64,000 nt of DNA from a phage. The translations under genes and the position numbers were made by a program. The notes under the pieces were generated by a model, which made no database searches, had not been told where the DNA came from, and saw only the letters and a program-made list of their open reading frames with translations. The DNA lies in the NCBI GenBank assembly GCA_024614665.1, contig GCA_024614665.1_4861.1; one strand, 5' to 3'. Positions 954-32,968 of this stretch are shown one piece after another (the stretch's first letter is position 1; every line of letters starts with the position of its first letter).

Positions 954-3137
954 TCACTTTGGTAATTGGTCTAGCCGGAAGCCATCCATGTCACGGTCGG
1001 CCACGCGCTCGGCAAGCGTCCACTCCTCAAATGACGTCCGCACACGGACAACGTCGATAGGCGGCTGTACCATATCGACCACAACATCCTGCTCGACCTT
1101 CACACGGATACCAGGGTAGACATTCATCCGCAACTTAATACGTTGCGGGATTGCCATTTCCTTTATCACGGGAGCGACAGGGATGGGCTTATCCGTCGTC
1201 ATGAATGAACTACGGCTCACACGCTGCACGTCTGTCAGAGGGTAAATGATATTTGTTGTATCGGCAGCCTCTGTGAGAATATCATCCAGAATCGGGATGA
1301 CTGGGTCGGTGACATCGTAGGTGTCAGAACCCATACGTGCGGCAAAATGGACAGTATACGACGAGAGTTTCGTCATTAACCGCACCATCGCGCGTTGTAT
1401 TTCAGCTTGTGAGACAGACGCACGTGTTTCCAGATTAGTGGCCACGTTTAGAGCGTCGGTGGCGATGTCCTGCCAGGTTTCCGCGGAGACTAACTCGTAA
1501 TCAAAACCAAACGTTTTAAAGAACTCGTCGTAATCGCGGTAAGGTAGGTCAAGATCGCACTTATAGTCACGGTAATGGTAGGTAAACAGCATTGTGCCGG
1601 CAGCACGGTCGGCTAGCTTGTGTCGATTATACGAGTAACGGTAACGACGACGCTTCTGCACCATGATTTCGCTAATTTCATCGTACAACTCATCTGCAGA
1701 CATCAAATTACCGATAACTTCATGATGCGTGTCCGTGTAATAGTTAATCAACGCATTAAAACGGCCGGGCCATGAACTTGGCAGATGCTGTTCCATCTCA
1801 TCAAAACCAACCCAGCGTTTGATTAGCACACCAAACACATTCCACACCGGGATTTTATCCAGTGCTACGCCAGAATAACCTTTGAAGCTCGCATACAAGA
1901 ACAGTGCCAGCAGCTCTTTTGAAGTGAGCTTTAGCGTGTCCCCGTTCGTTGGGTTAAGAATTTCGTGGTAAATGTTGTACTGTCCACGTGCCACGATATG
2001 CATCCACTCGTTGAACAAGCCATGCATAAATTCCCAACGTTCGATGGCCTCTGGGTCAATCGCCGTTACCTCAACTAACTTCGTTGGCAGGTTCGGATAC
2101 TGCGTCAAGCTCAAACGCCGATCGAGGTCTTCCTGATAGTCAGGTTCGTGCACTGGGTTATTGTACGCCAGATTGATTTCTTTCTGGATGATGTCAGTTG
2201 TGCTAACAATGTCCAGGTCACGGCCCGAGTCACGTTCAGTATAGTTAAGCGACGACTGGTAGCCGATCGGGAGTGGTGTCAGGTCATCGTCGCTGCCCGT
2301 CGTCGGGTCGTGAATCTGCTGGGCGACCTTATATCCAACAGCAGGCATACCCCAACCTGTCAGCAGGGTGTCAATCATCCAAGTAAAGATTTCTTCCTTA
2401 CCAGAGTTACGTTCCCAGTAACGGATATTGCGATACAGTGTGAATTTCTGCTTGAGGGTCAGGTACGGCATGAACTCGTGCAGTTCTTGGTGCGAAGCCA
2501 AGAACTCGGTCACGTAGTAGGAGTGCGTTTCGGTCGTAAACTGTAATCGTTTGCGGATGTACATGATAAGCCCCGGCCACACCGGGTACTGCTGCATGTA
2601 AAAGGCCAGTACGAAACAGTCGTTGTGAACTTTCCAGCCATCGGCCATGAAACGTACATGTGCCGCACGAATAAAGTTCTCAATATGTGTAATTAACGAC
2701 GTCTCCTGCGGTTCAACTAAAGCAGGATCGTAATACAAAATTGAGCAGTCATCGACACGTATCGCGTATGCAACATCAATCGGATTGAAAGTGCCGCGAA
2801 TGTATACTGCGTAGTCCGGATACTCGGCGATTAAGTCATCGATATACTCCGGGTTAGAACGATATACGTTTGAGGTCTTTTTATGACGGGAGAGGTTCTG
2901 CGTCGTTAACTCTATCTGCTCTTGCGTGTCGAGTGACGTAATGTATATCGGCTTGTCGATTGCATGTCGTTTACCTGCTAAGTGTAGGTAATACCGCCAC
3001 GTCTCACGGTTCTCGGAAACGAAACCGCCGTTTTTGGTTATTGCCAGGTTCATCTGTTGGGCGATGCTCTCTGATTTGACAATCAGGGATTTCGCTAACT
3101 GGATAGCCTGGTCACGAAAAATGTTAAATCTCTGCAT
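954..3137 (-). CDS. hypothetical protein (about 727 aa)
   Basis: Long ORF; track start at 3149 is a non-ATG codon, first ATG is 3137; head-to-head with plus gene starting 3149. Confidence 0.6.
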   Translation of the reverse strand: MQRFNIFRDQAIQLAKSLIVKSESIAQQMNLAITKNGGFVSENRETWRYYLHLAGKRHAIDKPIYITSLDTQEQIELTTQNLSRHKKTSNVYRSNPEYIDDLIAEYPDYAVYIRGTFNPIDVAYAIRVDDCSILYYDPALVEPQETSLITHIENFIRAAHVRFMADGWKVHNDCFVLAFYMQQYPVWPGLIMYIRKRLQFTTETHSYYVTEFLASHQELHEFMPYLTLKQKFTLYRNIRYWERNSGKEEIFTWMIDTLLTGWGMPAVGYKVAQQIHDPTTGSDDDLTPLPIGYQSSLNYTERDSGRDLDIVSTTDIIQKEINLAYNNPVHEPDYQEDLDRRLSLTQYPNLPTKLVEVTAIDPEAIERWEFMHGLFNEWMHIVARGQYNIYHEILNPTNGDTLKLTSKELLALFLYASFKGYSGVALDKIPVWNVFGVLIKRWVGFDEMEQHLPSSWPGRFNALINYYTDTHHEVIGNLMSADELYDEISEIMVQKRRRYRYSYNRHKLADRAAGTMLFTYHYRDYKCDLDLPYRDYDEFFKTFGFDYELVSAETWQDIATDALNVATNLETRASVSQAEIQRAMVRLMTKLSSYTVHFAARMGSDTYDVTDPVIPILDDILTEAADTTNIIYPLTDVQRVSRSSFMTTDKPIPVAPVIKEMAIPQRIKLRMNVYPGIRVKVEQDVVVDMVQPPIDVVRVRTSFEEWTLAERVADRDMDGFRLDQLPK

Positions 3138-3148
3138 CGGAGACCCCA

Positions 3149-5890
3149 ATGGAAGATATTAGTAAATTAACGGGCGACCCCGCGGTAGCTGCCATACTGC
3201 GTAAGTCCACGAGCCCGTCGGCTCAGCAGCAACGCGGTAAGCGTGAAGATGGCGGTGTTACACCAACCCGTACAGAACTCACAGGTATCGCGAGTAGCCG
3301 CATTCGCACCGTTAAAAATGCCGAACGTATCTTTGATGCGCTCCCTGAGTTAGAGGTCATTGTTACCATCGCGACCTCCTCGCTCCTGTCCACAAAAGAT
3401 TTGATTAACACCACGCTGATTTACGACAACGTGGCGGATATCCCGATCGACCTGCGTCAACAGTTGTTAGAACCCGTGCGTGATTTCCATGACCACACGC
3501 GCCAGTTGCCCAACAAACTGTATCAGTGGATTTACGATGCACTGAAATCCAAAGGTGCGAGCCCAGTGTTGCTGATTTCAGATACCGGATTCGATGAACT
3601 CTTCGGCTTAAAGCCGTCTGTTGCAACCGAATCACTGCGCCGGAGCCAATCTGACTTCTTTGAACGTCAGTTGGGTATTCTAGGCAAGATTGGCGGTGAG
3701 AACAAACCGAAGGTTGGTGTAGAAAGTATTCTGGGCCGTGCACGTGGCGCTGACAAGCCCACCAAGCCACAAACCATTAAACTTAACTTTGCATCAGCCC
3801 CTAACAGTCCGTTTAAAGCAGACGGTATGTTAGCTTCCCTGGATATCGTTATCACCGACAACCCGCGTATTACCCTGTTACCAGAGGCTTATCGCCGTGT
3901 GGCACAGGAGAATGCTCGTACCGGCCTGTTCGGGCAGTTAGAGCAGTACGCATATGAACAACCTTCTACACCGACAGGTGCGTCAGCGTATAACGCTGAC
4001 CAGTTCACCGACAGCGAACAAGAGAAGGCAAAACTCGGTTTAATCAACATTGGCGACCTCAACGAAGCGTACCAGAAAACGCCTGAGCAAAAGCTTTACG
4101 GCGAAGTACCGAAGATGAGTTTCTCCGATGCTAACAAAATCGAATACACGGAACGATTACTGCCAGCAGAGTCCACACTCCCGCTCGTTATCGGCGACGA
4201 TGTTCGTAACCCCATAGGTTATCTGGCCATCGTTGACGAAATGGGTAACTTCATTAACTCGCGCTCCACACTTTACGGTGATGCGAACTTCATGAACTAC
4301 CTGAACAACGACGGTATGGTGGATTCAACAATCAACCGTGCAAATCTGGGGATGGGCAACACAACCCGAATCACACCAGACATTGCTAACCGCTTAACAG
4401 CGCGTTATGGTGAGATTGCTGAAGATCAGCTGACAAAAGCGTTGGGTGAGGCGTTGGGGGGTGCTGAGATTAGCATGACGGTAACCGAAACGTTCAGCCG
4501 TATCATGTTAGCGCGCCATCTGGCAAAACGTCATACGCAGGTTATTTATATTCCTGCGGAAAACCTTTGCTACTTCGCCACGGACTTTGATGAAGATGGC
4601 ATCGGTGTATCTATTACCGAACGTTCGTTCGTTATCTCTACTGTCCGTATGGCACTGTTGTTCGCTACCATGAACTCTGCGGTGTTAAACTCTGCGCGTC
4701 ACATGCAGTACGACATTGAGTTGGCACCAGATGACATGAACGGTCAGAAAACAATTGACCAGTTGAAAACAGACATCATGAACTCCTATAACCGTCGTCA
4801 ACCGATGTGGGGGGACATGAACGACACCTGGGCAATGACGACAAACGCAGGTATTGCGTTCAACGTTATCGGTAACGACTACTACGGTAGTACCAAAGTG
4901 TCTGTGTCGGATACCACGCCGGATTATAAATATCCGGATAAGGATTTCGACGAAGGTCTGTTACGCCGTACTTGCCATATCGCTGGTGTTGACCCTGACC
5001 TGGTAATGACCCCGGAGAACATCGAATTCGCTTCACAGATTTTCTCTAAATCGTTGCTGGTCACGCAACAAGTTGTTAAGAAGCAAGAGATTCTCTCTAA
5101 GCCACTGACGCGTTATGTAGTCAATGGGATGTTGGCCTCCCCGTCGTTACAATCAGCGATGATTAAAATCATTGCAGAGTATATCAATGCTAACGGCAAT
5201 GGGATGACTACTGACCAGGTTACGAAAAAGGTCTCTGAGTATCTGGCTGCCTTCATCAACGGTATGAAAGTAACCTTACCACCACCAGACACCTCAGCAG
5301 CAGCTTCGCAGATGGAGTTGTTCGATAAACGTACTGAGTTCTTTGAGAAGCTGGCTGATCTGGTTGTAACGGATGACATTGCTGCGCAACTTCAGCAGGA
5401 AGGCATCTCGATGGACCCGAACGATCTGAAGACGATGATCAAATCCTTCTATACGCGCAACTGGCTGCGTAAACAAGGCATTGAAACCGACTTCTTCGAT
5501 CTGGTTTACGACGATAAATCTCGTCAAGACAACATTACCATGATGACTGATGAAGCGATGGCTGCTTCGAAGACGCTGATTCAACTGGCGAAACGCTTTA
5601 CAGGTCGTCTGGAAACGTTGGCGAAAAATGCTGACCTTGACCCTAACGAATCTGCTGGCGGATTCAGTGGTGGTTTTGATGCGGGCGGTGACACCGGTGG
5701 CGGTGAAGGAGATCTCGGTGGTGGGGGTGACGATGATTTAGACCTCGATCTCGATACGGATGACGGAACCGACGGGGATAGTACAGGGGAAACGACTGAG
5801 TCGACCGAAACCACGGATACAACCACCGAGGGAACGGAAGGCACAGAAGACGAAGGGACTACCGACGACAACCCAGACAACGTCCTCTAA
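3149..5890 (+). CDS. hypothetical protein (913 aa) with acidic Gly/Asp/Thr-rich C-terminal tail
   Basis: ATG with GGAGA about 9 nt upstream; ORF ends immediately before a canonical intrinsic terminator. Confidence 0.65.
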   Translation: MEDISKLTGDPAVAAILRKSTSPSAQQQRGKREDGGVTPTRTELTGIASSRIRTVKNAERIFDALPELEVIVTIATSSLLSTKDLINTTLIYDNVADIPIDLRQQLLEPVRDFHDHTRQLPNKLYQWIYDALKSKGASPVLLISDTGFDELFGLKPSVATESLRRSQSDFFERQLGILGKIGGENKPKVGVESILGRARGADKPTKPQTIKLNFASAPNSPFKADGMLASLDIVITDNPRITLLPEAYRRVAQENARTGLFGQLEQYAYEQPSTPTGASAYNADQFTDSEQEKAKLGLINIGDLNEAYQKTPEQKLYGEVPKMSFSDANKIEYTERLLPAESTLPLVIGDDVRNPIGYLAIVDEMGNFINSRSTLYGDANFMNYLNNDGMVDSTINRANLGMGNTTRITPDIANRLTARYGEIAEDQLTKALGEALGGAEISMTVTETFSRIMLARHLAKRHTQVIYIPAENLCYFATDFDEDGIGVSITERSFVISTVRMALLFATMNSAVLNSARHMQYDIELAPDDMNGQKTIDQLKTDIMNSYNRRQPMWGDMNDTWAMTTNAGIAFNVIGNDYYGSTKVSVSDTTPDYKYPDKDFDEGLLRRTCHIAGVDPDLVMTPENIEFASQIFSKSLLVTQQVVKKQEILSKPLTRYVVNGMLASPSLQSAMIKIIAEYINANGNGMTTDQVTKKVSEYLAAFINGMKVTLPPPDTSAAASQMELFDKRTEFFEKLADLVVTDDIAAQLQQEGISMDPNDLKTMIKSFYTRNWLRKQGIETDFFDLVYDDKSRQDNITMMTDEAMAASKTLIQLAKRFTGRLETLAKNADLDPNESAGGFSGGFDAGGDTGGGEGDLGGGGDDDLDLDLDTDDGTDGDSTGETTESTETTDTTTEGTEGTEDEGTTDDNPDNVL

Positions 5891-8330: not shown

Positions 8331-10109
8331 TTAGCGGCCGATTTTAGCAATGTCTTCTTCGGTCGGTCTGATGTACGGGTCCAGTTTAGGATTCCGCATC
8401 ATTACCAAACTTGGGTTGGTCTTCATGTACGGGTTGAGGATGTTTGCCTTAAACGGTGCCGACTTAGGAATATAGTAGACGTTACCGCATTCCAGATGCG
8501 ACGCGGATGCGTGCTTAGTACGGTCGTTCAAGTTAACGGTCTTGCCTCCTTTCTTCGAACGCTTAGCATCGGTTTCGGTTTGACCGATGGCGTGCGTAGA
8601 CACTGCCAATACCATTGATTCTGTAGAGGCATTGAAGAAACTGATACCGCCGTTGCTCGTAATGGTGCGCATCACCAGATTGAGCACGATCTGTTTGTTC
8701 AGTGCGTCTCGAATAGACTTCGCCGCTGTCTCTGGAGTCCGATGTTCCAACTGCCCCAGCTTCCAACGTATTTTCGAGATCGTTGTGGTAAAGCCACGTT
8801 GACCCAACAGTAGGTAATCGGTTACCGTGAGACGTTTTCCGTACATAGACGGAATATCATCTTGCTTGGTAAGTCGAGTGCGTACCATCAGCTGCGTGGT
8901 ATACCAGAGGAAATCAAACATATCCAAATCATCAGGGATGGACGGATCGTTTGCCATCAGCTCACCACGGAAGGTGCTGTTGACATAGCGTTCACATTCC
9001 TGGAAGTGGCTGTCCATACTGCGACTCAGTTCGATATCCGAAGGCTTCAGTCCGCGAATACTGCGGCCCAACACTTCACGCCAAGACGCTGCAGAGTTGA
9101 GGTTTGCAATATCTTCGTCCATTGCCATTTCATTAATCTGTGTAAACAGCCCCGGTAGTGTTGGTGCACGACCGTTCTTACTGTTCTGTTTACCTGCGTA
9201 GTAGTGCGCTGCTTTGAAGAACGCAGCAGTCGCTACCAGCAACAGATGTTCGTTTTGATCCCAACGCCCTGCATCGGTGTTAGGCATATCTTCACGTTTA
9301 ACCAACAATACGTACTGGATGGTCTTCGCGAGTTGTGGCTCACCAGATTGAATCACCACATACTTCGTTAAGTCCACATCACGCACTTTAATCGCTGGCC
9401 AAATCGCCACATCAACGCCCGCATAACGCTTCACGGCTTGTTTAAAGCCATAACGCCCAAAGAGCCAATACATCAGTGGCTTCTCATCTGTGTCGTGTCC
9501 AATCTGTCCAGTGGAGACAAACAGATTCGATGTACCCGGCAAGAACAGCTGCTCAGGGCGACCATTCACCAGAATCTTCGTTGGTTTCTTACAGAACTTG
9601 ATAGACACCTTGCGAGTGAAGTCAAAGTTAATAAAGATACCGCCGTGCTCACGACATATACCAGGTTGATGGATTACAGGTGCTACGTGGTACGTTGTAC
9701 CATAGTAGTTCATTAAGCCGCCACGACGAATAAACGGCAGGCTCATTGGTCGTTGCACCGGGCGAGGATCACCTGGAACTCGGAACGAGGCCATTACCAT
9801 ATACGTGTCAGTGGATGAGATGTTAATAATTGACCGGCCACGATTATTTCGTGAATTGTTATCCGACTTCGATAACTTAAAGATAAAAGCTTCAAACGGC
9901 GACATTTGGCGACAACCTAATACCGTTAACCCTTCTGGTAATTTCGGGTTATCGATTTCATCATACGTCAACTCACGACGTAGAATGGTTGCCACACGAT
10001 CATGTATCCCATCTTTAGCTTGTGTGTACCCAACTCCTTCTGCAATTGCACGATTAAAAGGCACTATTTCGCCTGCCTCTTTAATCTTCCTAATCGCATC
10101 TTTAAACAC
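8331..10109 (-). CDS. hypothetical protein (592 aa)
   Basis: Long uninterrupted ORF on the dominant coding strand. Confidence 0.6.
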   Translation of the reverse strand: MFKDAIRKIKEAGEIVPFNRAIAEGVGYTQAKDGIHDRVATILRRELTYDEIDNPKLPEGLTVLGCRQMSPFEAFIFKLSKSDNNSRNNRGRSIINISSTDTYMVMASFRVPGDPRPVQRPMSLPFIRRGGLMNYYGTTYHVAPVIHQPGICREHGGIFINFDFTRKVSIKFCKKPTKILVNGRPEQLFLPGTSNLFVSTGQIGHDTDEKPLMYWLFGRYGFKQAVKRYAGVDVAIWPAIKVRDVDLTKYVVIQSGEPQLAKTIQYVLLVKREDMPNTDAGRWDQNEHLLLVATAAFFKAAHYYAGKQNSKNGRAPTLPGLFTQINEMAMDEDIANLNSAASWREVLGRSIRGLKPSDIELSRSMDSHFQECERYVNSTFRGELMANDPSIPDDLDMFDFLWYTTQLMVRTRLTKQDDIPSMYGKRLTVTDYLLLGQRGFTTTISKIRWKLGQLEHRTPETAAKSIRDALNKQIVLNLVMRTITSNGGISFFNASTESMVLAVSTHAIGQTETDAKRSKKGGKTVNLNDRTKHASASHLECGNVYYIPKSAPFKANILNPYMKTNPSLVMMRNPKLDPYIRPTEEDIAKIGR

Positions 10110-11164: not shown

Positions 11165-11179
11165 AGATAATATCTATCT
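11165..11179 (-). promoter_or_regulatory. promoter-like 15-bp element, type A (plus strand AGATAATATCTATCT)
   Basis: Exact 15-mer shared by 5 sites; about 40 nt upstream of ATG 11125. Confidence 0.5.
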
Positions 11180-11230: not shown

Positions 11231-11929
11231 TTAGGGTATTAGGCGTTGGGCTATTTCGCGGAGTTGGTCGCGGGTTAAATCAGCCAACTTCTGGTCGCCG
11301 AAGCCCAACTTCAGACCCAGCTCGTACCCAGCTTGCGGATACGTGTTCGTGTTTGCTACTGAGAGGAGTGCATCGGCTATCTTTACCATCGTTAACTCGA
11401 GAGACGCATACGGGGCGGGGATCGGCTGATTCACGATTTGGTAATTATAACGCACTGCGGCGTTATCGTAGTCAAACTCCATCCTTCTGCCGAGAACGTT
11501 AAACGACTCCGCAGAATAACTACCAAATGGGTGATTGGCTTTTTCCCACAAATCTTTCCGTTCAGTAAACCCAGTCGCGAAGTTCTGACGTATGGTGTCG
11601 AATATTTGCGTTGCCTGGCTAGGGTGTATATTTTTCAGCTCATTGTAGTCGTAGTCGGCGATGGAATATAGAGTGAACACAACACCGTTTATATTTAACT
11701 GCGGATAATCCATCCGCAGACTGTCATCACCTTGTAAATGAAGTTCCCACATCCTTACCCACTGCAATATCGCGCTTACCGCATCGTGACTGAGATAAAA
11801 ATTAGTAGGTTCTTCAGGATTTTCACGGAAGGGAACAGAGCATTCCGATACAAAAAAGCCGGCTGCCATAAATCCTCTGCCGTCGAACATAGGCGCAACT
11901 AATCTTGATTTTTCTAAATTGATTACCAT
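11231..11929 (-). CDS. hypothetical protein (232 aa)
   Basis: ORF track; ATG 11929; promoter-like element 41 nt upstream. Confidence 0.55.
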   Translation of the reverse strand: MVINLEKSRLVAPMFDGRGFMAAGFFVSECSVPFRENPEEPTNFYLSHDAVSAILQWVRMWELHLQGDDSLRMDYPQLNINGVVFTLYSIADYDYNELKNIHPSQATQIFDTIRQNFATGFTERKDLWEKANHPFGSYSAESFNVLGRRMEFDYDNAAVRYNYQIVNQPIPAPYASLELTMVKIADALLSVANTNTYPQAGYELGLKLGFGDQKLADLTRDQLREIAQRLIP

Positions 11930-11969: not shown

Positions 11970-11984
11970 AGATAATATCTATCT
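11970..11984 (-). promoter_or_regulatory. promoter-like 15-bp element, type A
   Basis: Exact copy AGATAATATCTATCT immediately downstream (minus sense) of a terminator and 41 nt upstream of ATG 11929. Confidence 0.5.
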
Positions 11985-12064: not shown

Positions 12065-14365
12065 TTAGCCGCCAGCGCCTTCACCGCCAGTACCTGGCTG
12101 GGTAGCACCGCCGCCAACATCACCAGCATTACCACCGTCAGTACCGCCGGTGCCGTTGGAAGTAGTAGTGACGTTGAACGCCAGTTTCTCTTCCACGAAC
12201 TTGGTGATACCTTTAATCCAGATCAGACCAGTGATCGGGCAGTGGCAGATGTGCGCGTTACGAGGCTGTACTGCCAGCTCTTTGCTGGTAGCGCCGTTAC
12301 GCTGGATGTTGATGTTGGTTACCATGATCGGAGACCAGAAGTGGTTACCCCAGTTCAGAACACAGTAAGAACCATCATCAGCGGTTGGAACTTTCAGAAC
12401 CCACTGCAGGCGGCGAGTCCAGCTGCCGTCAGCTTCGTTCTTCACACGCCAGCGGTCATCGTTGGTGGTGATAACTTCGTACTCGTAGCGATCGCCCAGC
12501 AGACGCTGGTCGCCCTGAACCAGCAGCAGCATTGCAGCAGTCGGTTCGTCAGTTGCGATAACAACTTTCGGCAGTGCGTTCGGGTCCGCAGTCAGCAGGC
12601 GCAGAGCCGGCATGAAGCGAGAGTCCTGGATAGCACGAGTTACCTGGTCACCGATACGCTGTACCAGACCCTGACGGGCGTTGATGAGCGCATCTTTGGT
12701 ATCCAGAGACTGGATCACTTTGTCCACTTCGTAGTCGCTTTCGCTGTACCACGGAGCAACCCAGTGACGGCCCAGGCCGCGGATAGCAGGTTTGTCCCAC
12801 GGAGTGATCATGGACGCAGCTGCGTTCTTAACCGCTTCGGTGTAAGACAGAGTCTGAGTGATAGCCAGCATTTCGTTACGGATGTTAACCGCAGAAACGA
12901 GGTCGTCCAGACGTTCGGTGTCGTCGTATTCAACGCCAACCGGAGATTTGGTCATGATCGGAGAACCGTACTGCAGTTTGTAGTTCTCTTGTTCCCAAAT
13001 CGGGTCGAGCAGAAGGCCCTGGGTTCTCCGGTTCTCGTTGGTACGAGTACCGTCGAAGCGCCAGCCCAGCAGCTCCAGTTTCAGGTTGTCGATGATGACT
13101 TTGCCGGTGCCGCTTTCGATATCAACAGCAGTACCAGTTGCATCGTACAGACCTTCGATTTCCAGAGACGGTGCAGTCACGTCAACACGACCAGAGAACT
13201 GACCGTTGGTGAACAGAGACATGCTGATGTTCATGGAATAACGAATGGTGTAATCGTTCTGTGCCAGAGCGGCCAGTGCCGGGATTTCAGCACCTTTCCA
13301 GTCCAGAGACTTGGCGTTCAGGGAGAACACAGTGCGACGGAACTGCAGGACCAGCTCACGACCATCACCTTCAGGAGGACGCTGGAAGGTAGCGAACTGC
13401 ATGTCGCGTACGTTCAGTTTGATCAGCGCACCATCTTTCGCTTCTTCGCTCGGCTTACGCACAGACAGCAGCAGGCTACCCAGCGCTGCACCCGGTGCGA
13501 TTTCGTCGGTTTCATCGTAACCTTCCTGCACGATACCCGGATGGGCAGACAGCTGGAACAGGTTCAGACGACGCTCAGAGAAGCTCAGGTAGTTGGTCGG
13601 ATACGCCGGCACACGACCCAGCTGAACGTTTTCGTTTTCGATGATGTCTTCGGATACGAAGAACTTCGCGTTCTCACCGGTTTCCATCACGTAAGGTACG
13701 ATACGGATAGCATCGTCCTGCAGGACTTTGTGGTTAGACAGCGCGTTATGCAGCGGCTGACGGTTGTCTTCAACCACGTCTTTGGTCAGCAGGGCGTTCA
13801 GGATACCACGAGTTACAGTAGTAACTTTGGTACGAACGGTGATGCCGACGTCGTTGGTGTCCACAGTGATGGTCGGGAACAGGGTTTCTGCAAACTTGGA
13901 TTGAGTTTCCAGAGCACGCACGTTCAGCGTCCAGGTCAGACCCAGGTTTTTGTCCAGGTCTTTGTTGGTGTAGTATTCGGTTGCGACCAGCGGAGTTTTA
14001 CCGTAGTCAGCAGCCAGGGATGCTGCACCAGAAATAGCGATCGGCATATAGCTGGCGTATTCCGGCTTCGCGCTCTCAGCAGCAACACGGGTCATGAAGT
14101 CATCTTCGTGACCGGCAGCAGCCAGAATCATCGCAGAAGCAACCTGAGCAGCGTGGCTCATGGTTTTGCCAGGGTTTACAGCTTCGTAGTGCTGCTGAGC
14201 AGTGTCACGCAGGTTGGTGAAGCCGGCAGCATTTTTACGTACAGATTCGCCAACGGCTACGGTTTGCCATACGTCATTAGCGGAAGAGCCTGCCTTGGCA
14301 GCAGCGACCAGAGCATTGCCCTGCTGAACCAGCTGGTCCAGACTAGCGATACGGGTATCTTTCAT
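12065..14365 (-). CDS. candidate major virion structural protein (possibly major capsid protein), 766 aa
   Basis: Strongly biased codon usage typical of a very highly expressed gene, flanked by terminator; size in the range I recall for phiKZ-type major capsid proteins; no motif-level proof. Confidence 0.35.
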   Translation of the reverse strand: MKDTRIASLDQLVQQGNALVAAAKAGSSANDVWQTVAVGESVRKNAAGFTNLRDTAQQHYEAVNPGKTMSHAAQVASAMILAAAGHEDDFMTRVAAESAKPEYASYMPIAISGAASLAADYGKTPLVATEYYTNKDLDKNLGLTWTLNVRALETQSKFAETLFPTITVDTNDVGITVRTKVTTVTRGILNALLTKDVVEDNRQPLHNALSNHKVLQDDAIRIVPYVMETGENAKFFVSEDIIENENVQLGRVPAYPTNYLSFSERRLNLFQLSAHPGIVQEGYDETDEIAPGAALGSLLLSVRKPSEEAKDGALIKLNVRDMQFATFQRPPEGDGRELVLQFRRTVFSLNAKSLDWKGAEIPALAALAQNDYTIRYSMNISMSLFTNGQFSGRVDVTAPSLEIEGLYDATGTAVDIESGTGKVIIDNLKLELLGWRFDGTRTNENRRTQGLLLDPIWEQENYKLQYGSPIMTKSPVGVEYDDTERLDDLVSAVNIRNEMLAITQTLSYTEAVKNAAASMITPWDKPAIRGLGRHWVAPWYSESDYEVDKVIQSLDTKDALINARQGLVQRIGDQVTRAIQDSRFMPALRLLTADPNALPKVVIATDEPTAAMLLLVQGDQRLLGDRYEYEVITTNDDRWRVKNEADGSWTRRLQWVLKVPTADDGSYCVLNWGNHFWSPIMVTNINIQRNGATSKELAVQPRNAHICHCPITGLIWIKGITKFVEEKLAFNVTTTSNGTGGTDGGNAGDVGGGATQPGTGGEGAGG

Positions 14366-14377
14366 TTCAAGTTTACC

Positions 14378-14902
14378 TTATTTAGATAAATGACATGCGT
14401 ACAACTGCGTCAGCACTTCGTGCGCAGCAAACTGCGTCGACGTACTGAACGTATCATCCACGACACGAGTCTTGGGACGCATATATTTAAAAAGTTCTGC
14501 GCAGAACATCTTTTTCGCAGCGTGGTCTTCACTTAAAGAAAAACCCGGTCCGGATTTAGCTTCTGCAAAAGACGCCACAACAACATCGCCACGTTGTGAG
14601 AACACCCAACGTAAACGACCGTCGAATGATTCCCCATATAAATCAGCAAGGGTTTCATTCGTACCTTTCTCAACCAGGTTTAAGACCTGGTCATAATAAA
14701 GAGTCGGAAGTGCAGGTGGTGCCATAATCGATTTATAAATCGAAATAGGGTCACTCACTGGCAGTATGATGGAACTAAAGCCCGACGAGCAGTCATATAA
14801 CCAGTTAAAGAAGCTTGCTTGGAGTTCCTCCAACTTTTTAACGCCAGCCCCTTTATCTATGTTAGATTGAACTTCCCACGGTGGACTAAAACGAATTTGC
14901 AT
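14378..14902 (-). CDS. hypothetical protein (about 174 aa)
   Basis: Track ORF 14378..14956; in-frame ATG at 14902 avoids overlap with divergent plus gene; 12-nt gap to downstream gene suggests co-transcription. Confidence 0.5.
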   Translation of the reverse strand: MQIRFSPPWEVQSNIDKGAGVKKLEELQASFFNWLYDCSSGFSSIILPVSDPISIYKSIMAPPALPTLYYDQVLNLVEKGTNETLADLYGESFDGRLRWVFSQRGDVVVASFAEAKSGPGFSLSEDHAAKKMFCAELFKYMRPKTRVVDDTFSTSTQFAAHEVLTQLYACHLSK

Positions 14903-14916
14903 TTTAAGGATGCTCC

Positions 14917-16479
14917 ATGAATAGTAAAATGATGTTGATAACCGCCTTAGCCGCACTGTATACAGAATCTATGCTGACGGACCCTAGCAAGGATCATGAT
15001 GTCATAAGAAAAGTTCTGATGCAGATCAAGCTTCCGGAATATGCGGAAGATGGCGAAGAGCGCTTTGCACTCATCGAGATCAAGGACATTATCACATCTA
15101 TCATAGACGGCGGCATGGAATACGACCACGCGAGCGTTATGAAGCGCTTGAAGCTGGCCACCACTCAAGTACGTCCTCTATACGATACGATTACCAAATT
15201 CCTCGAAGACGATTTGCCCGAGGAAGAAGACAAACGTACCGAGCATCTTAATCGACAACTGTCTCAATATTATTTCCAATTACGTCAATGTTTACAGAGC
15301 GTCGAACTCAAAACAAAAATGGGTCGCGCGTTCGGAGCATTGAATGGAACTGAGACACGTGTTGATCTGAACACCGCAGTGCTCGAACTCAAAGAGGCGC
15401 TATCTACGTTCGGTGAACGCTCTCATAATAAGATTCCATCACTGGTCGGTGAGCTGGTTACAGATAATCGGGCTCCGTTTGTTAAAGTGTTCGACTCGAT
15501 TAACAAGAAAGCAGCAGGTAATGGTTTGCAGACGGGCTGGAAAGCCATTAACCAAATGCTCGGTTGTAACAAAGGGATTACCGAAGAACTGTGGCTAATG
15601 CCGGCGTTACCTTTTAACTGTAAGTCTTTGTTCAGTCTCTTGCTGAGCTTATCGATTCCTATCTTCAACACGCCTGAGAAAGTAATGGCGGATGTGAAGG
15701 GCACACTGCAACCAATTATTCTTGACTTGAGTTTAGAAAACGAACTCGACGTTAACTTAGCTTACGGCTATCAAGCTCTGTACGGTCATTTTGAAGGACA
15801 AGTTCCACAGATGACCATTTCACAGGATGCAACCGCTGAAGAGAAGTTAGCACACACAACAGCAATGTCTGATTACCTCTGTGGTAAGATTCGCGCAAAC
15901 GGTTGGGACTACGTTTTCCAAAAGCACACCAACTCCGATTTTAAAGTGCACTACATCAACGACCTTATTCTCGACTTACGTCGTCGCGGTTATCATGTTG
16001 TTGGCATTCGCGCAGACTACTTAGGCACAATCAGCAAAGCAGGACACGGCAACGGTATTGCCGGGAGTGATATCAAAGAAATTTATCGTATTGCTCGTAA
16101 CATTCAAGTGGTGCGCAACCGTGGGTTCTTAATTGCCCCACACCAGATTTCCCCAGAAGGTAAGCGCTTAAAAGCGTTAGACCCGGTAGGTTTCTGTAAG
16201 AACTTACCTGGTCGTGGTCTTTACGATAGTTGTTCGAGCCTTGATAACGAGGCCGATGGTGAAATGTATTTTAACAAGCGTGTGGTCAACGGCCATAGCT
16301 TCTTAGAAGTTCAACGCGGTAAGCACCGCACCATTATCGATACTAAAGAATCTTATCACTACACAGTGATACCTTTCCAGGATGTTGGCATCCTGCCTTG
16401 GGATTGTGATAAAGAAGAAACCGTAACAGCGTCGTCTATCAACTTCTTCACCGGTGGAATGGGTGATGATTTGTTCTAA
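14917..16479 (+). CDS. hypothetical protein (520 aa)
   Basis: Long ORF with AAGGA RBS; minus strand over the same span has only short ORFs. Confidence 0.6.
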   Translation: MNSKMMLITALAALYTESMLTDPSKDHDVIRKVLMQIKLPEYAEDGEERFALIEIKDIITSIIDGGMEYDHASVMKRLKLATTQVRPLYDTITKFLEDDLPEEEDKRTEHLNRQLSQYYFQLRQCLQSVELKTKMGRAFGALNGTETRVDLNTAVLELKEALSTFGERSHNKIPSLVGELVTDNRAPFVKVFDSINKKAAGNGLQTGWKAINQMLGCNKGITEELWLMPALPFNCKSLFSLLLSLSIPIFNTPEKVMADVKGTLQPIILDLSLENELDVNLAYGYQALYGHFEGQVPQMTISQDATAEEKLAHTTAMSDYLCGKIRANGWDYVFQKHTNSDFKVHYINDLILDLRRRGYHVVGIRADYLGTISKAGHGNGIAGSDIKEIYRIARNIQVVRNRGFLIAPHQISPEGKRLKALDPVGFCKNLPGRGLYDSCSSLDNEADGEMYFNKRVVNGHSFLEVQRGKHRTIIDTKESYHYTVIPFQDVGILPWDCDKEETVTASSINFFTGGMGDDLF

Positions 16480-19041: not shown

Positions 19042-19056
19042 AGGTAATATATATCT
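19042..19056 (-). promoter_or_regulatory. promoter-like 15-bp element, type B (plus strand AGGTAATATATATCT; within 26-bp exact repeat 19036-19061)
   Basis: 26-mer identical to 27539-27564; 13/15 match to type A on the coding strand; 58 nt upstream of ATG 18984. Confidence 0.5.
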
Positions 19057-19226: not shown

Positions 19227-20024
19227 TTACATCAAATCCAGGCTCTGTGAGACCGCAACTTCCGGTTCACTGATGCCGCTGGTCACTGACAATGTAAAGC
19301 GACGATCGTTAATCACTTCAACTGCTTCGCTCGCACGCAGTGAATACTTGTCGGCGATTGGCAGTACACTGTTATCGTTCTGCGGCGGCAGAATCTGTGC
19401 CGGGAACGGAATGTACGAGTTGAAAGTGATATACGGACCGACTTGCATCATCGGGAACACTTCGTTCACGTTATTCGACATCCCTTCATCCGAAGAGATA
19501 ACGGAGTGACGCAGACAGGCACGCAGGCCAACGGTGTACTCCGGATCGCGCGATTCGCCGATCAGTGCGAAACGGAACACATTGAAATCGTAGTCGTCTG
19601 CAGCGAAGTGCTCTGGCAGGATACGCTGTACGTATTCAGGGTAAGTGGTCACGTCACCCGGAATAACATTCACGGCGAGTTTCTGTGCCAGGAAATACGC
19701 ATTCGCGAAACCGTACTGACCCGCCAGCGCAGCTGAAATCGGTGCAGTGGTTACGCAGTGCAGGAACAAGTGATAACCCAGCCCGCCTTTATCTTCGATT
19801 GCCAGGTCCTTCTTACTCTGCACACCGTCAGCAGTATAAATAACTGCCACTGTCTTATCCAACGTCGATGCCATGACAAAATCCAACTGCACCTCACCGC
19901 TCTGCGGTAGTACCTTAACCAGGCGATCCCAGAGCTTGGTCGGTTTGGTGAAGTTAGCGGCTTCGTACGCATCAATGTCGAGAACAGTTTGGCCGGTCAT
20001 GCGAAAGGTGTGAATCGCTTTCAT
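19227..20024 (-). CDS. hypothetical protein (265 aa)
   Basis: ORF track. Confidence 0.55.
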   Translation of the reverse strand: MKAIHTFRMTGQTVLDIDAYEAANFTKPTKLWDRLVKVLPQSGEVQLDFVMASTLDKTVAVIYTADGVQSKKDLAIEDKGGLGYHLFLHCVTTAPISAALAGQYGFANAYFLAQKLAVNVIPGDVTTYPEYVQRILPEHFAADDYDFNVFRFALIGESRDPEYTVGLRACLRHSVISSDEGMSNNVNEVFPMMQVGPYITFNSYIPFPAQILPPQNDNSVLPIADKYSLRASEAVEVINDRRFTLSVTSGISEPEVAVSQSLDLM

Positions 20025-20067: not shown

Positions 20068-21381
20068 CTAAGCTGTAAATTTTTCATCTTTGAGCCAAAG
20101 ACTCAGTTGTGATTGGGTGTTATAGCGTCCTGATGCCATCGTTTGACCGTCGACAGCGGACTGGAACACTTCACCCACCAACGTGCCGTAGCGGGTATAG
20201 ACCCCATACTCGTTGGCAAAAACGTATTTTACTGGCATACCGGGATATAGGATGCCGTGCGTTGAACGGTTCCAGGTTGTTTGCACAATCGTACCCAGAC
20301 CCATCTCCAGTTTAGACCGCTGCGGTTTATCAGTATCACTAAAGTGTTTATCAGGATCGATTGGTGCGTTAACCACGCCGCCTGGATACGCAGCAGGGTC
20401 GGCCTGCGCCACAAACTTATCAGGTGTGGTCATACTGATGTCGCCAGGCGTAAATGAACTACTACGCCCATCCAACACACGTACAGACCCTACCCGGTAA
20501 CCCGTACCGTGGTTAAGCGCGGCCTGGTCACGGTATTCCAAACTACTGGTGTCGCCGCCACAAATCAGATAGATAACATTACCCGCAATATCGGTGGTGC
20601 GGTCAATGTGAGCAGCCTGTTCACGAGGCAGATTATAGATGACCAGTTTAGGCTTCGTTGTGTTATTAAACTTCAACGAGTCCCAAGGTCGATACAGATA
20701 CCATCGTTGTAGGTATTGGAAGACCCCAATACCTTTGCTGTAAACACCGTAATGGTTCTGCAGATAATCAAACACGCTTAAGAAGTCTTCGGAGTCTGGT
20801 ATAACGATGTCCCGATATGCCTGCTGTTCTTCTTCATCGTATTCAATCCCTTTCAACTGCCCCTCTGCAGCCACCCCTTCCGGCAACGTATCCGCCAGTA
20901 TCGAGCGTGCCACTGTTAACCCATCTGTTTCGTGGTAGATGCCGCCCACTTGACGATTACGCAGGAACCACATCGACTCATCCATCAGCTCCAATGTTAC
21001 CAAAGCGATAGATTTCTCATCAGACTGACTCAAGAACATCGTCGGTGTTTCCGCGTTGTGGTCGCGGTTATTTATCACGATGCCGCGGTAGTTAAAGACC
21101 CCCGCGATTTTCTGTCCACGACGCAATAACAGCTTTACCTTCAAATCCCCTTCTGCGGACGACGTGATCATTCGCATGTGGCTGTAGGGTATAGCCAAGG
21201 TGAGATGTGTCAATAAACAGATATCACGCGTAAAGTGACCGGTGTGAATGATAGACAGCATCTTCAACACCGTCACTGGGGCACCGTGTACCGTGAGGAA
21301 TATCCCGTAGTCGATAGCCGGTAACCCCCGAGCATTAGCGATGTGACCGTTCGCCATCTGTTGTAACCGACCAAACGACAT
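20068..21381 (-). CDS. hypothetical protein (437 aa)
   Basis: ORF track; AAGGA RBS region. Confidence 0.55.
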   Translation of the reverse strand: MSFGRLQQMANGHIANARGLPAIDYGIFLTVHGAPVTVLKMLSIIHTGHFTRDICLLTHLTLAIPYSHMRMITSSAEGDLKVKLLLRRGQKIAGVFNYRGIVINNRDHNAETPTMFLSQSDEKSIALVTLELMDESMWFLRNRQVGGIYHETDGLTVARSILADTLPEGVAAEGQLKGIEYDEEEQQAYRDIVIPDSEDFLSVFDYLQNHYGVYSKGIGVFQYLQRWYLYRPWDSLKFNNTTKPKLVIYNLPREQAAHIDRTTDIAGNVIYLICGGDTSSLEYRDQAALNHGTGYRVGSVRVLDGRSSSFTPGDISMTTPDKFVAQADPAAYPGGVVNAPIDPDKHFSDTDKPQRSKLEMGLGTIVQTTWNRSTHGILYPGMPVKYVFANEYGVYTRYGTLVGEVFQSAVDGQTMASGRYNTQSQLSLWLKDEKFTA

Positions 21382-21922: not shown

Positions 21923-23278
21923 CTACCTCGCGTATTTCAAAATCACGTAGACCATCGGGACGTAATAGAACTGACTGTCCTTCGGTAAAGCCAGCACCAA
22001 TTCTGCTAAACGCGCAGCCACTTCACTAGGTACCGGTTGTTTGTTCAGATACAGGTACAAACAATGCTCCAGAACCGAGCTGTACGAGCCGCTATAGAAC
22101 GTTTCGCTTAACAGGTAGGGTTTATACGTCAACGGCAGAAAAGCCACCATATCCTCGCCTGCGTTGCCCTGATACTCAGGGAACATAACCGGTTCAAATG
22201 CTTCGAACTCTGGCCATTCCCCATCGTACGTTGCCAACTGACGAATCTGTGATGTAAAGAAGCGCGTTGAACTGAACTGTGACCACGCGATGGTGTTGCG
22301 GGTCTGCATCGTTCTGAAAGTGCGCGGGTTAACTGCGCTGCATTCTTTCTCGACGTACGGTAGTAGTCCTGGCTGTTGATTTAACAACACCGTGAACAGC
22401 GTTTCGATATCTTGCACAGGTTTCGGCGGGTGTGGGTAAATACGGATATCTTTACCAACGGTTCGAAGGCCGATAGCCTTCACAAACATCGCCAAGAAGA
22501 CGTCGTAGTAGCCGCCTGCCTTTAACCCGTCGAGTTTCCAGTCGTGTGGATAAGCAAGAGTTTCTAAACTGGTATCGTAGAAGCGACGGACAAACGTCGT
22601 CTCAATGTCCTTAATGCGGTCTCCCAGCTCCAGGAACGTACGATACTCGTTGGGGGTCAGTAAGGTATCACCACCGGTCCACGCACGCTCACGGACGTAA
22701 TGGAGCGTTCTGACGGTACACAGACGAATCGTCTCTGCAATCTGCGGTGTAATCTCGTACAACATCGTGTAACGTATCTGGTACGTTGCAATTTTGTTGT
22801 TCGACATTCGGGTAACGGCAGTGATGTTAAACAGTCCGTGTCGATGGTCGCCTATCGGCGCAACAAAGAAGTCACCCTCGTTCGGTGTAATCGATGCTAC
22901 CAGGGTCGACGTCCCGGTCAGTTCGAAAGTCTTACGTTGTTCGTCCTGCGTACGGTCGAGCGGTGCGTTAACACGTAATGACAGATTAACAATCTTAAGC
23001 AGCTGTTGCGTAGGGCTGTCATTCTGAGTATCGAACATCGTCTTCGGATCGTTGCGACCCGACAACGCGTGATAAAAATCAACCGGCCATTCAGAACCTT
23101 CGTTGTATTGCAGGAGATACTGTTTCGGAATCCTGTCGAAGTCCGTTACCGTGGTGCGGGTTGGAATCGTTACCAAGTTGCTGGCTTCTTTTACCCCGTC
23201 CTGCGGTTTATTGATAATCGGAATCTCAGGTTCAACAGGAACGAATTTAGTATCACCCCTCTTGTTCGCCTTGAGCAT
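21923..23278 (-). CDS. hypothetical protein (451 aa)
   Basis: ORF track. Confidence 0.55.
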   Translation of the reverse strand: MLKANKRGDTKFVPVEPEIPIINKPQDGVKEASNLVTIPTRTTVTDFDRIPKQYLLQYNEGSEWPVDFYHALSGRNDPKTMFDTQNDSPTQQLLKIVNLSLRVNAPLDRTQDEQRKTFELTGTSTLVASITPNEGDFFVAPIGDHRHGLFNITAVTRMSNNKIATYQIRYTMLYEITPQIAETIRLCTVRTLHYVRERAWTGGDTLLTPNEYRTFLELGDRIKDIETTFVRRFYDTSLETLAYPHDWKLDGLKAGGYYDVFLAMFVKAIGLRTVGKDIRIYPHPPKPVQDIETLFTVLLNQQPGLLPYVEKECSAVNPRTFRTMQTRNTIAWSQFSSTRFFTSQIRQLATYDGEWPEFEAFEPVMFPEYQGNAGEDMVAFLPLTYKPYLLSETFYSGSYSSVLEHCLYLYLNKQPVPSEVAARLAELVLALPKDSQFYYVPMVYVILKYAR

Positions 23279-24755
23279 TATCGGCTCCTCTGATGGCTAT
23301 AATCGTGGTATTAAATTGCGTCAACAGGACACGGCGATAGAACTTCGTGATTTCATCAATCACACTTGGTGGTAACACAGGTTTATCCCACCACCAATCC
23401 GGGCAATCCCAATCTGGGAATAACCACTCAATAAGCACTTTTGCCGCTTTTGGATAAAGATGCAGTGGCCATAAGTCCAGATTACGCCAGTCGTGTATTG
23501 CCGACTCTGTTAAGTAGTACGCTTTCTCGACATGAACTTCACGGTTACGTAGCGAGAAAACACCGTTCTCCCAATGATAGAAACGCGGTTCAATAATTTG
23601 ACCGTTCTCGAACAATTCCATACGGATAATGCCCGTCTGACCTGTCGGGTCTATCGTGCGACAGTGCTCGATATAAGGAACCACGTCGGCATTCCAGACA
23701 TACGGTAAATCATCGATACTACAAACCTCAGGGTCGATCATGTTTTCTTCACCGAAGGCTACATCGGTGCCGAACACATGCAGAAGCTTTGCTTTTAGCG
23801 GCGAGTGTGTACGTTCGAACTGTTCTGTCGGTGACAGCAGATACGGTAGGCGTAAGAACTGGCGAGATTCATTAATCCACCAAGTGCCGTCGAGGTTCTT
23901 TTGCTGTTGGTGACGTTGCACACCCTCTTCATTACTCACAAACGGTGGGTCTATCTCAGGCCACCATTCATCAGGCAACGGTGTTTGGTTGATGATGTAC
24001 GGGTAGGTAATCACCACCTCTTCGGGTCGCTGATACGAGAAGCGTATAACGAAGCTGGTCTCGTAATGGTTTTCGTCGTTATCCCAGGTAGGAGAGATAA
24101 CATCGTAAACCGTCTCGATACGGGTTGGTGCATAACGCACCGCTAAGACATTCTGGCCACCGGCGACATTGCCTGTGGTGAAAACGTCGGGTGTGAAATG
24201 TGCCTTTAGATAGGCTTTAAAGTCATCGTATTTCGGCACACGGGTCCCTGCGGCAATATAGCATTCGTTCAATAGCTTAAGCGCAGGTTTTGGAATCAAG
24301 TAATACGCTTCGGATTCCGTCATGGTCGAATAGCGACCCATGTCGATAAGTGAATCCAGGCGGTTCGCCCAACGTAACAATTCGTCGCGTGATGGGCCGA
24401 CACGCCGGAGCGTGATGGTCACGTTATACATTACGCGGACAGGAGCAGCGCGTACTTGGTCTTCGGGGTTATGGAAGAATGGAATCTCTGCCGCTAACCC
24501 AACTTGACGGTTAATGCGTGCACGTTCATCACGTTCTTCTTCCACTTCGACGTAGACACGGTTCGGTGCTGAATAGTCCACCGGTGTCTCATCGCCGAGC
24601 GTAGAGCCTGGCTGATGGGCGGTGTTGAAGCTATCCGTGAAAACAACACTGGCACGTTCAATACCAGATTCGTTTAGCACACGTTCTACGACGCCGTCGA
24701 CCACAGCTTTGCGCATGGTCTTGTCCAACGATGGAATTTCAAAATACTGTTGCAT
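23253..24755 (-). CDS. hypothetical protein (500 aa)
   Basis: ORF track. Confidence 0.55.
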   Translation of the reverse strand: MQQYFEIPSLDKTMRKAVVDGVVERVLNESGIERASVVFTDSFNTAHQPGSTLGDETPVDYSAPNRVYVEVEEERDERARINRQVGLAAEIPFFHNPEDQVRAAPVRVMYNVTITLRRVGPSRDELLRWANRLDSLIDMGRYSTMTESEAYYLIPKPALKLLNECYIAAGTRVPKYDDFKAYLKAHFTPDVFTTGNVAGGQNVLAVRYAPTRIETVYDVISPTWDNDENHYETSFVIRFSYQRPEEVVITYPYIINQTPLPDEWWPEIDPPFVSNEEGVQRHQQQKNLDGTWWINESRQFLRLPYLLSPTEQFERTHSPLKAKLLHVFGTDVAFGEENMIDPEVCSIDDLPYVWNADVVPYIEHCRTIDPTGQTGIIRMELFENGQIIEPRFYHWENGVFSLRNREVHVEKAYYLTESAIHDWRNLDLWPLHLYPKAAKVLIEWLFPDWDCPDWWWDKPVLPPSVIDEITKFYRRVLLTQFNTTIIAIRGADNAQGEQEG

Positions 24756-27544: not shown

Positions 27545-27559
27545 AGGTAATATATATCT
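27545..27559 (-). promoter_or_regulatory. promoter-like 15-bp element, type B (within 26-bp exact repeat 27539-27564)
   Basis: Identical 26-mer to 19036-19061; sits between an upstream terminator and ATG 27496. Confidence 0.5.
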
Positions 27560-28892: not shown

Positions 28893-28969
28893 CTTTTTCT
28901 ATCCTCTAGGCGGTACGCCGTGTACCGCCATTAATGATTTGTCAACTGACGTTCAGTACGTAAAGCGGA

Positions 28970-30247: not shown

Positions 30248-30303
30248 TTGTTTCGGTTCCTTTGGTTATAACCCAATTACACGCCCCTAGATAAGGGGCC
30301 CCC

Positions 30304-30861: not shown

Positions 30862-30884
30862 GAGACTCTCCTGATAATACGGCC

Positions 30885-31817: not shown

Positions 31818-31827
31818 TCTTTTCCCC

Positions 31828-32946: not shown

Positions 32947-32968
32947 TTTTAACTAAACTCCGGAGTTA

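Follow-up and report, generated by a model that had tools for sequence, protein, structure and literature searches.

Compact head-to-head gene junctions and candidate TATG promoters within coding sequences of an SPN3US-type jumbo phage

The three junctions and their genes

In the phage DNA analysed here (NCBI GenBank assembly GCA_024614665.1, contig GCA_024614665.1_4861.1; the window is this whole stretch of 64,000 nucleotides (nt)), a minus-strand gene and a plus-strand gene stand head to head at three places with hardly any DNA between their start codons. These junctions are called site 1 (3137/3149), site 2 (14902/14917) and site 3 (32946/32972), and our subject is where transcription of the paired genes might begin. 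The first 20 kb of the window are 98-99% identical to SPN3US-group Salmonella jumbo phages (SEGD1, 99.3%; SPN3US, 99.1%), and by its sequence the window is that of an SPN3US-type, phiKZ-like, nucleus-forming jumbo phage. The junction genes and their operon partners are as follows.

954-3137, minus strand: site 1 minus gene, gp82-like virion structural protein 9 (SPN3US annotation); phiKZ gp128 orthologue (tblastn to phiKZ 128430-130304, E 5e-84)
3149-5890, plus strand: site 1 plus gene, portal protein (SPN3US gp81); phiKZ gp129 orthologue (tblastn E 4e-38)
12065-14365, minus strand: gene for the major capsid protein (SPN3US gp75), second in the minus operon of site 2; phiKZ gp120 orthologue
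14378-14902, minus strand: site 2 minus gene, gp74; positional counterpart of phiKZ gp119, between the helicase and capsid genes
14917-16479, plus strand: site 2 plus gene, DnaB-like replicative helicase (SPN3US gp73; Pfam PF20307, E 1e-124); phiKZ gp118 orthologue (tblastn E 3.5e-40)
31828-32946, minus strand: site 3 minus gene, virion structural protein 4; phiKZ gp89 orthologue (tblastn E 5e-31)
32972-37191, plus strand: site 3 plus operon, virion structural proteins 3 and 2
32972-34231, plus strand: virion structural protein 3 (Pfam Phage_TTP_15), phiKZ gp88-like
34231-37191, plus strand: virion structural protein 2, phiKZ gp87-like

With tblastn, five of the junction genes proved orthologous to phiKZ genes, as did the capsid gene and virion structural protein 2 among their operon partners. 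The window gp74 gave no tblastn match in phiKZ, and its equivalence to gp119 is by position (synteny) only. All the junction genes are virion or head genes except the helicase, which is a replication gene.

At site 1, the ATG of the minus gene at 3137 (CAT 3135-3137) and that of the plus gene at 3149 are separated by an 11-nt spacer, cGGAGaCCCCa (3138-3148). At site 2, the ATGs at 14902 (CAT 14900-14902) and 14917 flank the 14-nt spacer tttAAGGAtgCTCC (14903-14916). At site 3, the minus ATG at 32946 (CAT 32944-32946) is followed by ttttaactaaaCTCCGGAGtta and then by a tandem ATG-ATG at 32969 and 32972; the spacer measures 25 nt (32947-32971) to the start at 32972, or 22 nt if the first ATG is used. 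The start at 32972 is the more likely one because the second ATG aligns with the starts of all relatives, stands 6 nt from its Shine-Dalgarno (SD) box, and is the start given for SPN3US in RefSeq. The GenBank and RefSeq starts of SPN3US otherwise agree with those of the window, the use of the second ATG at site 3 by RefSeq being the only exception. The SD boxes within the spacers are these.

3139-3142: site 1 plus-gene SD, GGAG, 1 nt from the minus start
3144-3147: site 1 minus-gene SD, GGGG (complement of CCCC), 1 nt from the plus start
14906-14910, plus strand: site 2 helicase SD, AAGGA, 3 nt from the minus start
14913-14916, minus strand: site 2 gp74 SD, GGAG (complement of CTCC), abutting the plus ATG
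32958-32965: two abutting site 3 SDs, CTCCGGAG, with GGAG boxes back to back

The boxes are thus crossed at sites 1 and 2, where the SD of each gene lies against the start codon of its partner. At site 3 they form a perfect palindrome of 12 nt, AACTCCGGAGTT (32956-32967), which gives GGAG to both strands. As a repeated operator, CTCCGGAG was ruled out, since it occurs as a single copy in the window. A preliminary description of this DNA had placed the starts 12-25 nt apart, each ribosome-binding site in or next to the partner's start, with overlapping 5' ends. The close spacing holds at all three places (spacers of 11, 14, and 25 nt), with the plus start at site 3 moved from 32969 to the likelier 32972, and the ribosome-binding sites lie as described, crossed at sites 1 and 2 and abutting at site 3. 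The overlap is correct for the translation-initiation regions and for the 5' untranslated leaders that we infer, not for the coding sequences, which do not overlap at any site.

In the SPN3US genome, 17 credible divergent junctions have gaps of 11, 14, 25, 29, 57, 63, 66, 67, 70, 72, 76, 98, 124, 163, 180, 206, and 280 nt, and the three considered here are the tightest of them. A fourth tight junction lies outside the window (SPN3US NC_027402.1, 212327/212357), where 29 nt separate a tail fibre protein gene from that of the β subunit of the virion RNA polymerase (vRNAP). Its SDs, CTTCC and GGAG, are back to back and uncrossed, and its phiKZ counterpart, gp180/gp181, has a gap of 75 nt.

Conservation among relatives and the arrangement in phiKZ

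The syntenic region was compared in nine relatives from five genera: pEa_SNUABM_29 (Seoulvirus), phiEaH2 and Asesino (Erskinevirus), Machina and ChrisDB (Machinavirus), Wellington and pEa_SNUABM_11 (Wellingtonvirus), and CR5 and Phobos (Derbicusvirus). All three head-to-head junctions are kept in every relative, with spacers of 11-15 nt at site 1, 11-14 nt at site 2, and about 20-29 nt at site 3, and the SD boxes are invariant across 9-10 genomes at all three sites. In the site 1 spacer, GGAGAC and CC are invariant in nine genomes, CR5 and Phobos having GGAGACAACTCC; AAGG-TGCTCC at site 2 and ACTCCGGAGT at site 3 are invariant in 10 genomes. These genomes are so diverged that only about 10% of the codons for invariant amino acids are still identical, and the junction anatomy has nevertheless been kept; therefore, it is under selection.

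Might the tight spacing result from misplaced start codons, with one true start per pair lying further downstream and leaving an ordinary intergenic region? The helicase does have conserved ATGs at codons 5-6, and the site 3 plus gene has its two adjacent ATGs. However, in all 9-10 genomes each of the six genes begins at a homologous ATG that has an SD at the proper distance, and the N-terminal sequences are kept from residue 1. Upstream extension is blocked in most genomes by in-frame stops without an alternative start. The sole conserved start close downstream is helicase codon 6, which lacks an SD and would widen the gap to just 29 nt; elsewhere the next conserved alternatives are 18-29 codons in or absent. 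In addition, gp81 of SPN3US is the portal, and peptides of its N-terminal propeptide have been detected by mass spectrometry (PMC5694885). An annotation artefact is therefore very improbable.

The orthologous junctions of phiKZ, gp128/129 for site 1, gp118/119-120 for site 2, and gp88/89 for site 3, are head-to-head as well, with gaps of 35, 211, and 39 nt, respectively. The junction between the helicase and the gp119-capsid genes has this layout family-wide, with annotated gaps of 200 nt in RSF1, 39 in Goslar, 32 in Eowyn, and 28 in both Ea35-70 and pVa-21. By this comparison, the SPN3US clade represents the compact extreme of a head-to-head arrangement that is ancient. In the Vibrio phage pVa-21, the portal/gp82-like junction (20639-20756) has an annotated gap of 116 nt, which is probably an annotation artefact; a gp82-like start near 20672, as placed by tblastn, would reduce it to about 30 nt.

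Which polymerase would serve such junctions? The phiKZ-like phages carry two multisubunit RNA polymerases of their own, the virion enzyme and a non-virion enzyme (nvRNAP) (PMC7598289, PMC4666361), and their development is independent of host RNA polymerase (PMC4666361, PMC7598289). The core of the phiKZ late promoter is T(-3)ATG(+1) only (PMC4666361, PMC7598289); in vitro, it is required, yet alone insufficient (PMC4666361). Subunits of the five-subunit nvRNAP, the enzyme on which phiKZ-type late promoters would depend, are encoded in the window, among them a gp68-like specificity subunit, and the RefSeq names of the other subunit genes agree with their matches.

58361-59995, minus strand: gp68-like nvRNAP specificity subunit (match to phiKZ gp68, E 4e-11)
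52603-54840: nvRNAP subunit gene, matching phiKZ gp71-73
50498-52603: nvRNAP subunit gene, matching phiKZ gp74
8331-10109: nvRNAP subunit gene, matching phiKZ gp123

It could still be supposed that host σ70 RNA polymerase transcribes the pairs from conventional promoters hidden in coding sequence, and a few 9-of-12 matches do lie near sites 2 and 3. Yet σ70-like -35/-10 hexamers with spacers of 16-18 nt number 0, 1, and 2 around sites 1-3, where shuffled sequences give 0.7, 1.5, and 0.8, so that the counts are at or near chance. Together with the host independence of these phages and the polymerase set encoded in the window, these counts leave the σ70 explanation scarcely credible.

Early promoters were also considered. 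In phiKZ, these are AT-rich motifs of about 10 nt near -10 (PMC7598289). A motif resembling their consensus (..AGATCTATATTAC..), namely AGATAGATATTATCT with the variant AGATATATATTACCT, has seven good matches in the window against about one expected, all on the minus strand, including copies upstream of the nvRNAP β genes and the gp68-like gene.

11165-11179, 11970-11984, 19042-19056, 27545-27559, 54871-54885, 58614-58628, and 60030-60044, minus strand: matches to AGATAGATATTATCT

These copies are probably the early (vRNAP) promoters of the clade. The one at 54871-54885 is inside the 66-nt divergent gap upstream of the nvRNAP β genes, as fits early genes. No copy was found within 1 kb upstream of the six junction genes. 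The copy at 11970-11984 accompanies an open reading frame of 232 amino acids (11231-11929, minus strand) between the gp76-like and capsid genes; it is absent from SPN3US (a difference of about 600 bp) and has no Pfam hit, and its position is occupied by a gene in Erwinia relatives.

The transcription start sites (TSSs) of phiKZ have been mapped by ONT-cappable-seq (bioRxiv 10.1101/2023.10.13.562163, Table S3). At the counterpart of site 1, the late promoter P070 at 130258(+), ending ...TTTTATGA, is 70 nt inside gp128 and yields a monocistronic gp129 transcript. At the counterpart of site 3, P046 at 88779(+), ending ...ACATATG, is 175 nt inside gp88, upstream of gp89. Hence, at two of the three orthologous junctions, a phiKZ late TATG promoter lies inside the coding sequence of the partner gene. 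At the counterpart of site 2, P063 (P119L) at 117616(+) serves gp119-120, and P062, a second TSS for gene 119, lies inside the helicase gene; gene 119 also has internal TSSs, P064-P068, upstream of the capsid gene. The earlier remark that the minus gene at 14902 leads an operon with a capsid gene was right: this gp119 counterpart heads an operon with the major capsid gene, which P119L drives in phiKZ. Divergent TSS pairs with overlapping transcripts (P043/P044 and P072/P073) are known from phiKZ too (all from bioRxiv 10.1101/2023.10.13.562163).

TATG as a constrained signal and candidate promoters

If the nvRNAP of this clade starts at TATG, what trace has this left in the genomes? In the intergenic regions upstream of the co-directional late genes 19227-20024 and 23253-24755, TATG is the sole invariant element in seven genomes. 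All 256 4-mers in the coding sequence of the window were ranked by depletion relative to shuffles of synonymous codons. TATG on the sense strand occurs 165 times against 272 expected (ratio 0.61, z -9.4) and is the third most depleted; antisense TATG, read as CATA, occurs 56 times against 107 expected (ratio 0.52, z -6.7) and is the eighth. There is no similar depletion of AATG, CATG, GATG, CATC, or CATT (ratios 0.88-1.21), and the median ratio of 4-mers that contain TA is 1.01. The depletion of TATG and CATA is found also in CR5 and Wellington (0.56 and 0.36 in Wellington) and is weaker in phiKZ. Selection against accidental start sites for the nvRNAP, acting on both strands, could account for it.

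In the same ranking, GATC comes first (ratio 0.47 here and 0.27-0.31 in CR5 and Wellington), which suggests avoidance of a GATC-specific restriction or a Dam-linked activity. The SD-like GAGG, GGAG, and AGGA are likewise depleted inside genes.

Conservation of antisense TATG was analysed in 26.3 kb of aligned coding sequence, comprising 20 genes with 8-9 genomes each. The six head-to-head genes contain eight fully conserved antisense TATGs and the other 14 genes none, and among the 48 conserved 4-mers tested, CATA shows the strongest enrichment in head-to-head genes (p = 4e-4). Next in enrichment are TCAT and ATAA, the flanks of the same motif, TTATGA. The conserved copies share a T-rich/TTAT context and often read TATGAC; three of the five copies of TTATGAC in the window are at conserved antisense TATG sites. 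For five of the six genes, the nearest TATG embedded in the partner is the conserved copy. With the invariance in intergenic regions and the avoidance, this makes three independent lines of evidence for TATG as a functional signal that is constrained in the clade, kept where it is used and avoided elsewhere. The candidate promoter TATGs of this phage are listed below, with other conserved copies in the same genes.

2882-2885, plus strand: site 1 candidate for the portal gene, context TTTTTATGAC, inside gp82; G(+1) at 2885, leader would be 264 nt; fully conserved
3951-3954, minus strand: site 1 candidate for gp82, inside the portal gene; G(+1) at 3951, leader 814 nt; fully conserved, the weakest candidate
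14858-14861, plus strand: site 2 candidate for the helicase, TTATCTATGT, inside gp74 codons 14-15; predicted leader 56 nt; fully conserved
15003-15006, minus strand: site 2 candidate for gp74-capsid, at helicase codons 29-30 (ATA AGA) in an invariant 10-nt block, consensus CTTTCTTATGAC; leader 101 nt; fully conserved
15424-15427, minus strand: second conserved TATG in the helicase gene
14695-14692 and 14638-14635, minus strand: conserved sense TATGs inside gp74, which could be extra capsid-gene promoters and resemble the internal TSSs of phiKZ gene 119
32579-32582, plus strand: site 3 candidate for the plus gene, TTATCGTATGACGG, inside the minus gene; G(+1) at 32582, leader 390 nt; fully conserved
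33227-33230, minus strand: site 3 candidate for the minus operon, inside the plus gene; G(+1) at 33227, leader 281 nt; fully conserved
33511-33514, minus strand: second conserved TATG in the site 3 plus gene

Of the three, site 2 gives the clearest case. The TATG at 14858-14861 is preserved through a rare isoleucine codon, ATA, in 10 of 10 genomes. That at 15003-15006 is a candidate equivalent of P119L, whose leader in phiKZ is 47 nt (bioRxiv 10.1101/2023.10.13.562163), for the gp74-capsid operon; in Ea35-70 and Eowyn, too, a TATG lies 21-29 nt into the 5' coding sequence of the helicase. The two predicted leaders would overlap by about 143 nt, and both are predicted to be less structured than shuffles. 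At site 1, the TATG at 2882-2885 is the nearest on the plus strand upstream of 3149, and a minus-strand TATG with its G at 3193, which would give gp82 a 56-nt leader, is present in the window and absent from the other aligned genomes. At site 3, the TATG at 32579-32582 is the sole plus-strand copy in the 1 kb upstream of 32972. Leaderless initiation was ruled out, as none of the six start codons is overlapped by a TATG.

These candidates have to be weighed against two other ways of transcribing the pairs. In the first, the pairs have no embedded promoters of their own; the plus-strand genes or their partners are expressed from long read-through or antisense transcripts begun at promoters more than 1 kb away, and the conserved TATGs have another role or none. 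The distances of 264-814 nt at sites 1 and 3 would suit this, as would the long antisense transcripts of phiKZ, such as P069 from inside gene 120 towards the helicase, and the highly interconnected transcription units of jumbo phages (PMC10914365). Against it stand the confinement of conserved antisense TATGs to the head-to-head genes (8:0), the site 2 TATGs, which lie 56 and 101 nt away in invariant blocks that rare codons preserve, and P070 and P046, which are discrete late TSSs within partner coding sequences. We consider distant promoters unlikely.

In the second, the promoters are embedded, but of a type other than TATG, either middle-class or with an unrecognised motif, so that the conservation of TATG is incidental. 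The middle promoters of phiKZ are indeed weakly defined, 32 of its 149 TSSs have no motif, the helicase is a replication gene, and TATG alone does not suffice in vitro. However, the specific avoidance of TATG on both strands, its invariance upstream of the control late genes, and the presence of conserved antisense copies in head-to-head genes only speak against it, and most of the genes involved are structural, i.e., late. We consider promoters without TATG unlikely as well.

Returning to embedded TATG promoters, several points weigh against them. The enrichment test has only eight sites, and its conservation threshold was set after the alignments had been viewed. General synonymous constraint over the first 100 codons of the six head-to-head genes shows no excess over the 14 control genes; in codons 1-25, 14% are identical in the six genes versus 9% in the controls (small numbers), and embedded signals at these 5' ends, if present, would be short. 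For each orthologous pair of phiKZ, a TSS was detected for one partner only, and no published transcriptome or TSS data for SPN3US or close relatives were found in the literature. As for the helicase, middle rather than late expression would be expected. Finally, the conserved TATGs stand at phiKZ-like distances (56 and 101 nt) at site 2 only. At sites 1 and 3, with distances of 264-814 nt, the multi-genome alignments contain no conserved TATG within 240 nt; the distant copies there could have a different function, or transcription could in fact start from lineage-specific promoters or from promoters of the poorly defined middle class.

With these points taken into account, we put at roughly 70% the probability that the three sites are compacted ancient divergent junctions at which the phage's own nvRNAP starts at minimal TATG promoters inside the opposite gene. 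The polymerase would initiate at T(-3)ATG(+1), in a T-rich/TTAT upstream context, within the 5' part of the opposite coding sequence, and host σ70 polymerase would not be expected to take part. The spacer of 11-25 nt contains just the two SD boxes, for translation of both genes. Since the SDs are crossed at sites 1 and 2, a leader that carries its own SD must there begin at or inside the coding sequence of the partner. The paired mRNAs would thus have mutually complementary, overlapping leaders covering the partner's ribosome-binding site and start codon. The preliminary description had reasoned that two conventional promoters do not fit here, so that the promoters must either lie within the coding sequence of a neighbour or be very short. 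This is supported, and apparently both are true, with a 4-nt core inside partner genes; the evidence for embedding is the position of P070 and P046 inside the partner genes of phiKZ and the restriction of conserved antisense TATGs to the six head-to-head genes.

A roomier junction, 40774/40845, with a 70-nt divergent gap between virion structural protein 1 and DNA polymerase, may also use an embedded promoter. DNA polymerase would have a leader of 91 nt if transcribed from a plus-strand TATG at 40754, which lies 20 nt within the minus gene, and the gap itself contains a minus-strand TATG at 40827.

RNA elements were looked for as well. The hairpin GAGACGAGCGATGTCTC at 32912-32928 (codons 7-12 of the site 3 minus gene) was rejected as a terminator or regulator: its fold is no better than shuffles (z -0.37), the stem and the U-run are not contiguous, and the hairpin is missing from Wellington; one compensatory synonymous pair occurs in CR5 and Phobos. 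Upstream of the site 2 TATG, another hairpin (14819-14833) resembles a terminator but was set aside because it is not conserved in relatives. An Rfam scan of 28800-33100 gave no match. Two near-invariant hairpins on the minus strand, at about 28905-28926 (GGCGGTAC..GTACCGCC, z -2.8) and about 30270-30306 (CACGTCCCTAAGGGGGCCCCTTATCTAGGGGCGTG, z -2.0), lie directly upstream of the SDs of two ejection/internal head protein genes, 27633-28892 and 28970-30247, whose products are very abundant. They have neither a TATG nor a U-run and no counterpart in Rfam, and might act in processing, stability, or translation.

Meaning and comparison with known systems

The feature is a compact form of the known phiKZ-type transcription with minimal TATG promoters embedded in coding sequence, and what is new here is some detail: the crossed or palindromic SDs, the avoidance of TATG, and a small set of conserved TATGs as candidate late promoters. 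According to a 2020 review, the late promoters of these phages are not predictable bioinformatically (PMC7598289); in this clade, avoidance of TATG and its conservation across genera do predict such a set, with 14861(+) and 15003(-) as the prime positions among the candidate start sites. The tight junctions are not annotation errors but would reflect host-independent transcription: where the core promoter of a phage polymerase measures 4 nt, genes can stand head to head with ribosome-binding sites alone between them. For engineering, this would mean that synonymous recoding near the 5' ends of the six genes could destroy the promoter of the neighbour.

Several features link the junctions to phiKZ: the junctions are orthologous, the TATG core is that at whose G the TSSs of phiKZ lie, and a polymerase of the same family, with a gp68-like subunit, is encoded here. 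There are also differences. The spacers are 35, 211, and 39 nt in phiKZ and 11, 14, and 25 nt here; P119L is intergenic there, but its presumed equivalent in this phage is embedded in the helicase gene; the crossed or palindromic placing of the SD boxes is a feature of the junctions here; the TSSs of phiKZ are mapped, those here predicted; and TATG avoidance is stronger here (0.52-0.61 of expected) than in phiKZ (0.85-0.91).

It is tempting to go further and to regard the crossed-SD junctions with buried promoters as a conserved regulatory device, an excludon-like timing switch of nucleus-forming phages, rather than mere compaction, a proposal that we hold to be unlikely. If it were true, each leader would be perfectly antisense to the ribosome-binding site and first codons of its partner, and a late burst of gp74-capsid transcription from about 15003 would silence the helicase through an RNA duplex or polymerase collision.

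The excludons of Listeria and other overlapping divergent 5' untranslated regions have leaders that run antisense across the start region of the neighbour, with scope for mutual repression. The junctions described here differ in that the polymerase is phage-encoded and the predicted overlap is reciprocal rather than one long antisense RNA. In the pIN/pOUT system of IS10/Tn10, facing promoters produce RNAs that are complementary at their 5' ends and cover the translation-initiation region, one of the two being a dedicated antisense regulator; here, both predicted RNAs would be mRNAs for essential proteins, and the SDs interdigitate. Bacteria also have bidirectional σ70 promoters, in which very close divergent transcription arises from the symmetry of the DNA. 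The 12-nt palindrome of site 3 is symmetric too, but it consists of two ribosome-binding sites instead of -10 elements, and σ70 would not be expected to act there.

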